Shown: in pieces, positions 62,578 through 63,743 of the stretch | Numbering within the stretch: position 1 is the stretch's first letter | How the letters are laid out: every line of letters begins with the position of its first letter | From: Thermoplasmata archaeon | GTDB taxonomy: Archaea; Thermoplasmatota; Thermoplasmata; Lutacidiplasmatales; UBA184 | Assembly (NCBI GenBank): GCA_052325545.1 | Contig: JBKQUP010000037.1 | Coordinates: 240,459-304,458 of the forward strand | Direction: 5' to 3' | DNA length: 64,000 nucleotides | The notes under the pieces: model-generated | What the model was told of the DNA's origin: nothing | The model's input: the letters and a program-made list of their open reading frames with translations, nothing else | Databases searched by the model: none | Translations under genes and position numbers: made by a program

Positions 62578-62847
62578 ATGTCGGAATCCTCGAAACTCGC
62601 GGCGTTTCTCCTCGCCCTACAGACATCCCCCAGCGCACAGAACCGATTCAAGGAAGACCCGGAAGGGGAGTTGAAGCGGTTCGACCTATCGACCAGCACC
62701 ATCAAGGCCATCAATGACGGAAATGCGGAGGCCCTCTGGCTGATTCTGACCCGTGTGCCCGGCCATGTTGGGGTCGTGATCAGCCACGTCGGGGTCGTGA
62801 CCGCGCGCGAGCGGCGTGGTCGTCGGCGCAAGAAGAAGGCGACCTAA
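62578..62847 (+). CDS. putative split-borosin RiPP precursor peptide (SonA-like helical domain plus V/G/I/H-rich core plus polybasic tail)
   Basis: 89 aa. The N-terminal roughly 55 aa are helical (KLAAFLLALQTSPSAQNRFKEDPEGELKRFDLSTSTIKAINDGNAEAL), followed by the core VPGHVGVVISHVGVVTA and the tail RERRGRRRKKKAT. It lies 44 nt upstream of the methyltransferase on the same strand. Confidence 0.65.
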   Translation: MSESSKLAAFLLALQTSPSAQNRFKEDPEGELKRFDLSTSTIKAINDGNAEALWLILTRVPGHVGVVISHVGVVTARERRGRRRKKKAT

Positions 62848-62891
62848 ATCGGGCGACCGACTCCAACGGGTCCCGCTTCCGAGGAGATGGG

Positions 62892-63743
62892 TTGAGGCGC
62901 CGGGGTCGACCGCCCGGCACGCCCCGGCGCCGCGGCAGGGGATCTCTTGTCATCGTAGGGACCGGGCTGAAAGCCGCGTTGCACACCACTCCCGAGGCGC
63001 GCGATGAGATCTCCCGCTCCGAGAGGGTCTTCTATCTGATCTCGGACCCGCTTTCGGAGAGATGGATCAAGAATCTTCGCCCTACCGCGAGGTCGCTCGA
63101 GCCCTGCTACGTCCCGGGCGGACGGCGTATGGCCGCGTACCAGCGAATGATCGACCGAATTCTCGCTCCGGTTCGCGCCGGCCACAGGGTCTGTGTGGCG
63201 TTCTATGGCCACCCGGGGGTGTTCGTCTTCCCTTCCCATGAGGCCATCCGACGGGCGAGAGAGGAAGGCTTCGATGCCCGGATGCTCCCCGGAATCTCCG
63301 CGGAGGACTGCCTATTTTCCGAGCTCGGCATCGATCCATCGCGTTCCGGATGCCAGAGCTACGAGGCCACTGACTTCCTGGTCTACCGCCGGAGATTCGA
63401 CCCCTCCAGCGCGTTGGTGCTCTGGCAGGTCGGGGTCGTCGGGAATCTCAACTACGGACAACGGCCGGCACGATCCGGTCTCCGCGTGCTCGCTCGACGC
63501 CTTGCGCGCGTCTACGGCGGGAAGCATGAAGTGGTGCTCTACGAGGCAAGCCTCCTCCCGGTCCTCCCGTCCATCATCCGTTCAACCACCATCGAGGAAC
63601 TCCCGTCTGCTGGGGTCACGGGCAGCATGACCCTCTTTGTTCCGCCTCGGCCGCACTCCCCGGATCCCCGGAGTTTGCGTTTGCTCGGTCTTCGAGCTTC
63701 GGACCTGGTGGCGGTTCCCTCCTGCTGGAAGCCGGGTGCGTGA
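62892..63743 (+). CDS. borosin-type peptide alpha-N-methyltransferase homologue (OphMA/SonM-like, tetrapyrrole-methylase fold)
   Basis: [76 protein letters not shown] and [10 protein letters not shown]. These follow the OphMA methyltransferase domain almost position by position, as I recall that sequence. TTG 62892 is the only in-frame start. Confidence 0.8.
   Translation: [283 protein letters not shown]

Follow-up and report, generated by a model that had tools for sequence, protein, structure and literature searches.

A probable Type IV split borosin cassette beside a class III cyclase-TPR gene in a Thermoplasmata archaeon

The window analysed here, a 64,000-nucleotide stretch of contig JBKQUP010000037.1 from a Thermoplasmata archaeon, closes with two short genes that the initial annotation had taken for a split borosin locus, that is, a precursor peptide followed by a peptide backbone alpha-N-methyltransferase. 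Judging from sequence comparison and structure modelling, the pair very probably encodes a genuine borosin-type methyltransferase together with its substrate, and we assign it to the Type IV split cassettes because a precursor bearing a predicted borosin binding domain (BBD) stands next to a discrete, single-domain methyltransferase. The two open reading frames (ORFs) and the predicted parts of the precursor are given below, in window positions and with + for the forward strand.

62578..62847 (+): putative split borosin precursor ORF, ATG start, 89 aa
62578..62751 (+): precursor leader, residues 1-58, predicted BBD (LigA-like five-helix bundle), from profile, AlphaFold2 (AF2) model and Foldseek
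62755..62805 (+): predicted core, residues 60-76, VPGHVGVVISHVGVVTA, two HVGVV[I/T] units, from the SonA alignment and the recurring subfamily motif
62806..62847 (+): polybasic C-terminal tail, residues 77-89, RERRGRRRKKKAT, plus stop codon; 9 of its 13 residues are Arg or Lys
62892..63743 (+): predicted borosin-type peptide alpha-N-methyltransferase ORF, TTG start, 283 aa

The gene pair and its methyltransferase

Rechecking the ORF list placed both reading frames where they had first been located, and every peptide string originally cited for them, VPGHVGVVISHVGVVTA included, is found in the translations. The two genes lie on the same strand with a gap of 44 nt, and 257 nt separate the methyltransferase stop from the end of the window. 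Other ORFs on both strands of this region, which has 64-66% G+C, have no homology or conservation support. The pair itself is far beyond chance: the enzyme has matches in the PDB, the small ORF is conserved, and the identical 283-aa protein occurs on at least 22 independent contigs, among them ones of 1.13 Mb and 442 kb.

Compared with Pfam, the 283-aa protein matches TP_methylase (PF00590; 7.8e-16, 59.1 bits, cut-off 27.8) and no other domain, a separate BBD being absent from the enzyme. A phmmer search of the PDB returned SonM (6.9e-54), dbOphM (9.1e-52), MroMA (2e-51) and OphMA (8.5e-50), and all of the top 25 sequence matches are borosin peptide alpha-N-methyltransferases. The next match after these is a precorrin-2 methyltransferase at 1.4e-3, which is also the best tetrapyrrole methylase. 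The enzyme shares 43% identity with SonM over 239 aligned residues. Mutagenesis and structures have shown Y58, R67, Y71, Y93 and the lock F99/W166 to be important in SonM (Miller et al., PMC8429565), and the pairwise alignment sets Y73, R79, Y83, Y105, F111 and W178 of the archaeal enzyme against these residues. A published detection rule for BorosinMT is built on YGHP and DCLFAD-type motif blocks, to which we matched by inspection the sequences FYGHPGVF and EDCLFSEL, both conserved clade-wide. Consistently, although the AF2 model of the enzyme is of moderate quality, with a predicted local distance difference test score (pLDDT) of 72, its top 50 Foldseek matches are exclusively SonM, MroMA, OphMA and dbOphMA, at E values of about 1e-26. 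Taking its sequence as evidence, the ORF at 62892..63743 is a borosin-type alpha-N-methyltransferase, and backbone methylation is its predicted activity.

Two elements set the archaeal clade apart. An Arg-rich N-terminal extension (residues 1-16, window 62892-62939) and a C-terminal extension of the form ...LGLRxSD...PxCW (residues ~257-283, window 63660-63740) are common to its methyltransferases, while the bacterial relatives, at 53-56% identity, carry neither of them.

There is next to no probability that the protein is instead an ordinary tetrapyrrole (CobA/CbiL/CobJ-type) or diphthine methyltransferase following an unrelated ORF: Pfam does give the general TP_methylase family and nothing narrower, and some source annotations of homologues read 'precorrin-6B/3B methylase', but the best tetrapyrrole methylase in the PDB trails SonM by some 50 orders of magnitude, the NCBIfam equivalogs score far too low (19.1 bits vs 391 for NF004648, the precorrin-3B C17-methyltransferase; 13.3 vs 163 for CbiL; 12.9 vs 246 for CobJ), the protein has the residues and motifs specific to borosin enzymes, the pair has no adjacent cobalamin or siroheme genes in the extended contigs, and a BBD-bearing ORF is conserved upstream. 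With every NCBIfam tetrapyrrole-methylase cut-off missed, this identity is effectively refuted. The enzyme has its fold and superfamily (PF00590) in common with CobA/SUMT, CbiL and CobJ, and groups by phmmer, NCBIfam and Foldseek with SonM, OphMA, dbOphMA and MroMA, as had been proposed.

Leader, core and tail of the precursor

The pairing of the 89-aa ORF with the methyltransferase, first proposed from this one locus, is kept elsewhere. A hidden Markov model (HMM) of the precursor homologues finds a same-strand ORF directly upstream of a methyltransferase homologue in 6 of 6 other Thermoplasmata loci, and after iteration a precursor ORF is found beside the methyltransferase in about 70 of 80 related loci. 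The seven cluster-level homologues have in common a conserved N-terminus, a VPGHVGVVI-SH-VGVVTG core and an Arg/Lys tail. When 1.84 billion representatives were scanned in full with HMMER, 27 proteins fell into this precursor subfamily at E <= 1e-3.

To place the leader, we compared a profile of 32 leaders, which includes that of the window precursor and none from Shewanella, with the PDB. The profile matches SonA chains at 8e-16, followed by the C-terminal domain of dbOphMA/OphMA (3-6e-4) and by LigA-type dioxygenase subunits (~1e-3). The Pfam family LigA matches 25 of the 32 leaders, and its weak match to the window's own 89-aa ORF proved meaningful because the SonA chains are deposited as LigA-domain proteins. 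Two other matches to the small ORF, IniB_NTERM and Cas9_b_hairpin, were dismissed as sub-threshold noise. The AF2 model of the precursor shows five helices across residues 3-58 with pLDDT of about 90, and Foldseek places SonA chains first, with template modelling (TM) scores normalised to the target of 0.80-0.93 and root-mean-square deviations of 0.6-0.8 A over 48-52 residues; DesB and LigA rank after them. Since the profile matches SonA and the best matches of the predicted fold are SonA chains, the leader of the 89-aa precursor is, by profile and model, a borosin binding domain. The SonA-like helical leader of the initial annotation is thus borne out by profile and fold, but its description as a three-helix domain is not, the SonA leader having been described as a five-helix bundle (PMC8429565).

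The core invites a comparison at the level of single residues. In SonA, L63 is methylated first and then I65 (PMC8429565, PMC10549244), and the product, shewanellamide A, is DSSYQSYL(Me)VI(Me)SHGNGD. The hydrophobic stretch HVGVVISHVGVVT of the predicted archaeal core contains VISH, and a gapless alignment of the two precursors, at an offset of 3 and with 17 of 71 positions identical, sets V66-V67-I68-S69-H70 on L63-V64-I65-S66-H67. The likeness to the SonA C-terminus that had been noted is therefore one of exact register with the methylated LVISH. Because they are in register with L63 and I65, V66 and I68 are tentatively predicted as the methylated residues of the precursor and the first sites to be modified; the regiospecificity of SonM depends on redundant local contacts, for which reason the two sites are put forward by analogy.

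Within the subfamily, the core takes the form of a unit, [H/Q]-[V/I]-[A/G]-x-[V/A]-[V/T]-G, with a polybasic tract behind it. The metagenomic relatives P0126, P0128, P0129 and P0131 are multi-core, with two to four units of the type (E)P-x-[H/Q]-[I/V]-A-x-V-x-G, each with its own Arg/Lys-rich tract, and in the window precursor two units lie side by side ahead of one tail. The polybasic tail is kept in all close homologues, and long basic tails are also found in the precursors of the acidobacterial sister group. Most simply, the polybasic tract after the core would be a follower or a processing spacer; it may also hold a processing site or belong to the product.

A number of results weigh against reading the locus as a split borosin system. 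Searched alone, the 89-aa ORF has no phmmer match in the PDB and no BLASTP match to SonA, so that its link with SonA is carried by the family profile, the predicted fold and a short motif; in its model, core and tail fall below a pLDDT of 50. The methyltransferase model, mediocre at its pLDDT of 72, reaches TM scores of merely 0.44-0.48 against SonM, which we attribute to the uncertain packing of domains in the model. In the literature searched, the polybasic tail has no described counterpart. The neighbour-joining tree described below carries no bootstrap or other support values. Finally, no protease, macrocyclase or transporter gene lies within 10 kb in the extended contigs, a protease being absent both upstream and downstream, so that any released natural product is putative.

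Candidate expression signals, host and probable origin

Two short elements upstream of the genes bear on their expression.

62544..62556 (+): AAyCyGTTTATmG box, candidate archaeal BRE/TATA promoter of a leaderless transcript, from an intergenic alignment of five Thermoplasmata loci
62881..62886 (+): GAGGAG, Shine-Dalgarno-like element of putative function, 5 nt before the methyltransferase TTG

The intergenic DNA of the five loci diverges everywhere but in the AAyCyGTTTATmG box, whose TTTATC (62550-62555) lies centred around 26 nt ahead of the precursor ATG at 62578. An archaeal TATA box some 26 nt before the ATG is the established geometry for leaderless mRNA, and because the box matches this geometry, we infer that it is an archaeal TATA-type promoter from which a leaderless precursor mRNA would start. 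A scan of 62300-64000 for sigma-70 promoters and intrinsic terminators, which addresses bacterial and not archaeal promoters, found none. By eye, a G+C-rich inverted repeat, GGGGCC-TTGGTACCA-GGCCCC, is visible at 63825-63850 (+), about 90 nt past the methyltransferase stop; it may form a hairpin, either at the end of the transcript or of the IS110 target type.

These signals and the homologies described above can be put together into a working mechanism. Transcription of the precursor would begin at an archaeal TATA-type promoter of its own and give a leaderless mRNA, and the methyltransferase would be translated off the same transcript via the Shine-Dalgarno-like site. By homology with SonM-SonA, the five-helix BBD of the precursor would dock on the discrete, S-adenosylmethionine-dependent methyltransferase. 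The enzyme would then clamp HVGVVISHVGVVT in its active site and methylate backbone amide nitrogens in the N- to C-terminal direction, with V66 and I68 as the likeliest starting points. Release of the methylated peptide, if any, would require an unlinked protease, as in Shewanella, since none is encoded nearby.

The host is a soil-type archaeon. The identical proteins are labelled 'Thermoplasmata archaeon' at NCBI, and the window contains an archaeal class I CCA-adding enzyme (47322-48965); together with the TATA-like box, these agree with the archaeal origin assumed from the outset. Orthologous pairs are present in six further loci from five other Thermoplasmata metagenome-assembled genomes (MAGs). 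One of these, JOPF086, carries two diverged cyclase-TPR/precursor/methyltransferase units (L010 1102-1902 and L007 5137-5976), whose methyltransferases are 64% and 81% identical to that of the window and whose cores differ.

In a neighbour-joining tree rooted on SonM, the Thermoplasmata enzymes form one group with two subclades. This group is sister to an acidobacterial one (Vicinamibacterales and relatives) and is nested among bacterial sequences. The topology suggests one bacterial-to-archaeal transfer followed by diversification, a reading that is tentative because the tree lacks support values. The borosin cassette was probably acquired from bacteria, apparently together with the neighbouring signalling gene. 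Relative to the window average, the three genes are slightly low in G+C and third-position G+C (GC3), a dip too weak to serve as stand-alone evidence of transfer.

The same relationships could be read as the outcome of a mis-assembly or mis-binning that put bacterial DNA into an archaeal MAG, a possibility to which we give a very low probability. In its favour, the nearest relatives outside the Thermoplasmata are soil bacteria at about 55% identity, the three genes have the somewhat lower G+C and GC3 just mentioned, and an IS110 transposase lies about 590 nt downstream. The identical arrangement is found, however, within the 1.13 Mb and 442 kb contigs, which come from independent samples; orthologous pairs recur at the six loci of five other Thermoplasmata MAGs; the 64-kb window holds the archaeal CCA-adding enzyme; and the box conserved before the precursor is of archaeal type. 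Mis-binning is unlikely because the NCBI label, the large contigs, the CCA-adding enzyme, the TATA box and the Shine-Dalgarno-like site all speak for an archaeal replicon.

Genomic surroundings and comparison with known borosins

The gene preceding the precursor encodes a signalling protein.

60433..62427 (+): class III adenylate/guanylate cyclase-TPR protein, 664 aa; Pfam Guanylate_cyc 4.3e-12 and many TPR families

In this protein, a cyclase domain (residues ~8-167) is followed by an unannotated middle part and by TPR repeats, and the motifs FTDLVGFT, KSTGDG and NLASR are present. It has no hydrophobic segment (maximum KD19 value 1.31) and is predicted to be cytoplasmic. Few archaea, to our knowledge, have class III cyclases. 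Of the genes around the pair, the cyclase-TPR gene alone is conserved, with orthologues of 75-81% identity directly upstream in L007-L010. Extra paralogues flank the pair in L012 and L009, and the gene is multi-copy in these Thermoplasmata MAGs, with two to three copies per 13-20 kb locus (L012 1527-3467, 3636-5579 and 6876-8921; L009 688-2694 and 3614-5671; L001 19930-20852).

The association is also seen in bacteria, with other domain combinations. A class III cyclase-domain ORF is found in the fetched flanks of 31 of the 80 related loci, and in 27 of the 80 it lies at most 300 nt from the pair. Actinomycetes and Chloroflexota have cyclase-AAA/NB-ARC-TPR proteins (cyclase-STAND-TPR) as neighbours, and the proteins of Acidobacteriota (L015, L032, L017) join a Ser/Thr kinase head to a homologous C-terminal region that contains TPR. 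A Pfam census of 66 upstream neighbours gave TPR 17 times, Guanylate_cyc 12, AAA_16 10, NB-ARC 6 and Pkinase 5; GGDEF was outside the top 25 families of these upstream neighbours. Nor does Pfam find GGDEF in the window's own cyclase-TPR protein, which has PF00211 and TPR instead. In published surveys, 56% of split borosin clusters contain GGDEF cyclases, and a GGDEF-TPR protein fused to the methyltransferase is described as Type X; the son cluster of Shewanella includes a GGDEF gene, and the association has been noted by the Freeman laboratory. The association of borosins with TPR-bearing signalling proteins thus looks general, the output domain varying by lineage.

The previous observations lead to an alternative with unchanged chemistry, in which the small protein in its N-methylated form, or some part of it retained in the cell, is an intracellular ligand or regulator of the cyclase-TPR protein, and the three genes form a peptide/second-messenger module instead of a secondary-metabolite cluster. 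The sole conserved neighbour is the cyclase-TPR gene, and the cyclase ORFs within 300 nt in 27 of 80 loci, the acidobacterial kinases on the TPR region, the published GGDEF frequency and the Type X fusions all fit this idea. So, weakly, do the missing transmembrane segment of the cyclase-TPR protein, the lack of an exporter and the finding of shewanellamide A in cell pellets, not in supernatants. On the other hand, the argument is one of guilt by association, and the multi-copy paralogues raise the odds of a chance adjacency. We regard this alternative as speculative and unlikely, and a functional coupling of the cyclase-TPR protein to the pair as possible but doubtful. Less likely still is a broader proposal, in which the pair and a TPR sensor form one module with the N-methylated peptide as intracellular ligand or regulator and a repeatedly swapped output domain (GGDEF, Ser/Thr kinase, class III cyclase or cyclase-STAND), the transfer from Acidobacteriota-like bacteria to Thermoplasmata included. 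If it were true, the transfer would have carried peptide-gated cyclic-nucleotide signalling into an archaeon, and the polybasic tract behind each core unit would belong to a recognition or processing scheme of a new type.

The initial annotation had looked to an extension of the contig for tailoring, protease or transport genes, and none was found within 10 kb. Downstream in the extended contigs are an IS110 transposase, a SnoaL-like protein, proteins without Pfam match, an NHL/beta-propeller protein, RibD_C and a second cyclase-TPR gene, and these are unconserved in related loci except for one propeller homologue in L010. The IS110-family transposase (PF01548 and PF02371) lies at 11442-12476 (+) of L001. 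The NCBI MAG contig L003 ends near this transposase, which suggests that its assembly broke at the insertion sequence. In Shewanella, the protease for shewanellamide release is likewise unlinked to the cluster. It seems about an even chance that a short peptide is released from the archaeal precursor. Elsewhere, PatG-type subtilase macrocyclase domains (PatG_C, PatG_D, Peptidase_S8) adjoin borosin pairs in 2 of the 66 upstream-neighbour ORFs, both in bacterial loci, which hints that those loci make N-methylated macrocyclic peptides.

Among characterised systems, the closest is SonM/SonA of Shewanella oneidensis MR-1, the Type IV system behind shewanellamide A. Each pairs a discrete methyltransferase of some 260-280 aa with a small, separately encoded precursor, in which an N-terminal BBD of five helices is followed by a short C-terminal hydrophobic core (BBD and core being predictions in the archaeon), and VISH stands equally distant from the BBD in the two precursors. 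Neither cluster contains a protease gene, and a nucleotide cyclase gene adjoins both. SonA ends in GNGD, whereas the archaeal precursor has the 13-residue polybasic tail and a duplicated HVGVV[I/T] core. The son cluster has a GGDEF neighbour in place of a cytoplasmic class III cyclase-TPR protein, as well as a cation efflux gene, which the archaeal locus lacks. Compared with SonM, the archaeal enzyme has the extra N- and C-terminal extensions, and the archaeal pair differs further in its host and in its candidate archaeal-type promoter.

More distant are the fused, Type I fungal enzymes of the omphalotin family (OphMA, dbOphMA, MroMA). Their methyltransferase domain is homologous (E ~1e-50), the C-terminal BBD-like domain of OphMA and dbOphMA is detected by our leader profile, and the fungal cores are also rich in Val, Ile and Gly. 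In the fungi, one polypeptide methylates its own C-terminus, whereas in the archaeon enzyme and substrate are separate and a macrocyclase is absent. Fungal borosin products are macrocyclised by a prolyl oligopeptidase. In Type X, a TPR-containing nucleotide cyclase protein is tied to the methyltransferase much as here, but as a GGDEF-TPR-TM fusion, unlike the separate class III (PF00211) gene of the archaeon with no predicted transmembrane segment. The multi-core Type V system RceA/RceM resembles the relatives of the window precursor that carry two to four repeated core units; in Type V, however, the BBD is predicted in the methyltransferase and not on the precursor, and the archaeal precursor's multi-core relatives have a basic tract after each unit.

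As a prediction, an archaeal borosin is not new: putative Type IV-like borosin clusters with methyltransferase homologues have been reported in 11 archaea, 8 of them Halobacteria, with a 20-member bacterial/Halobacteriales cluster in the set (Imani et al., bioRxiv 10.1101/2021.12.24.474128). Those clusters resemble ours in their archaeal hosts, in standalone methyltransferases of 210-309 aa and in being bioinformatic predictions; Thermoplasmata are not named in the text searched. In the literature searched, the characterised borosins are fungal or bacterial and no experimentally characterised archaeal one was found, in keeping with the initial annotation; no paper there links borosins to Thermoplasmata.

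The locus is thus a credible Thermoplasmata member of the known Type IV kind, its gene pair as the classification predicts, and it stands out by its polybasic tail or spacer, a candidate signalling partner in the class III cyclase-TPR protein, putative archaeal expression signals and the extensions of the enzyme. Backbone N-methylation of ribosomal peptides is prized for the protease resistance and membrane permeability that it confers. In this context, the locus supplies a compact, synthesisable archaeal pair (89 and 283 aa) with explicit site predictions, V66 and I68, and delineates a small group of precursors built on an unusual unit, a core joined to a polybasic tract. The recurrent adjacency of TPR-cyclase or kinase genes across phyla and domains extends the GGDEF association and suggests a physiological function of split borosins that can be tested. 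To specialists the pair would come as no great surprise; its value lies in being ready to test and in its cross-domain synteny with signalling proteins.

Some features elsewhere in the window deserve mention. It contains no tRNA gene. At 4936-7458 (+) lies the gene of a glycyl radical enzyme of 840 aa with a score of 1305 bits for the NCBIfam equivalog of trans-4-hydroxy-L-proline dehydratase (cut-off 1100), which is unexpected for a Thermoplasmata archaeon, and an amino-acid permease gene follows at 7496-8935. A thiamine pyrophosphate (TPP) riboswitch at 19263-19371 (-) scores 56.2 bits, barely over the Rfam gathering threshold of 54.3. A SOR/SNZ (PdxS-like) gene lies at 19381-20406, and a ThiI-domain protein is encoded at 39686-41425.

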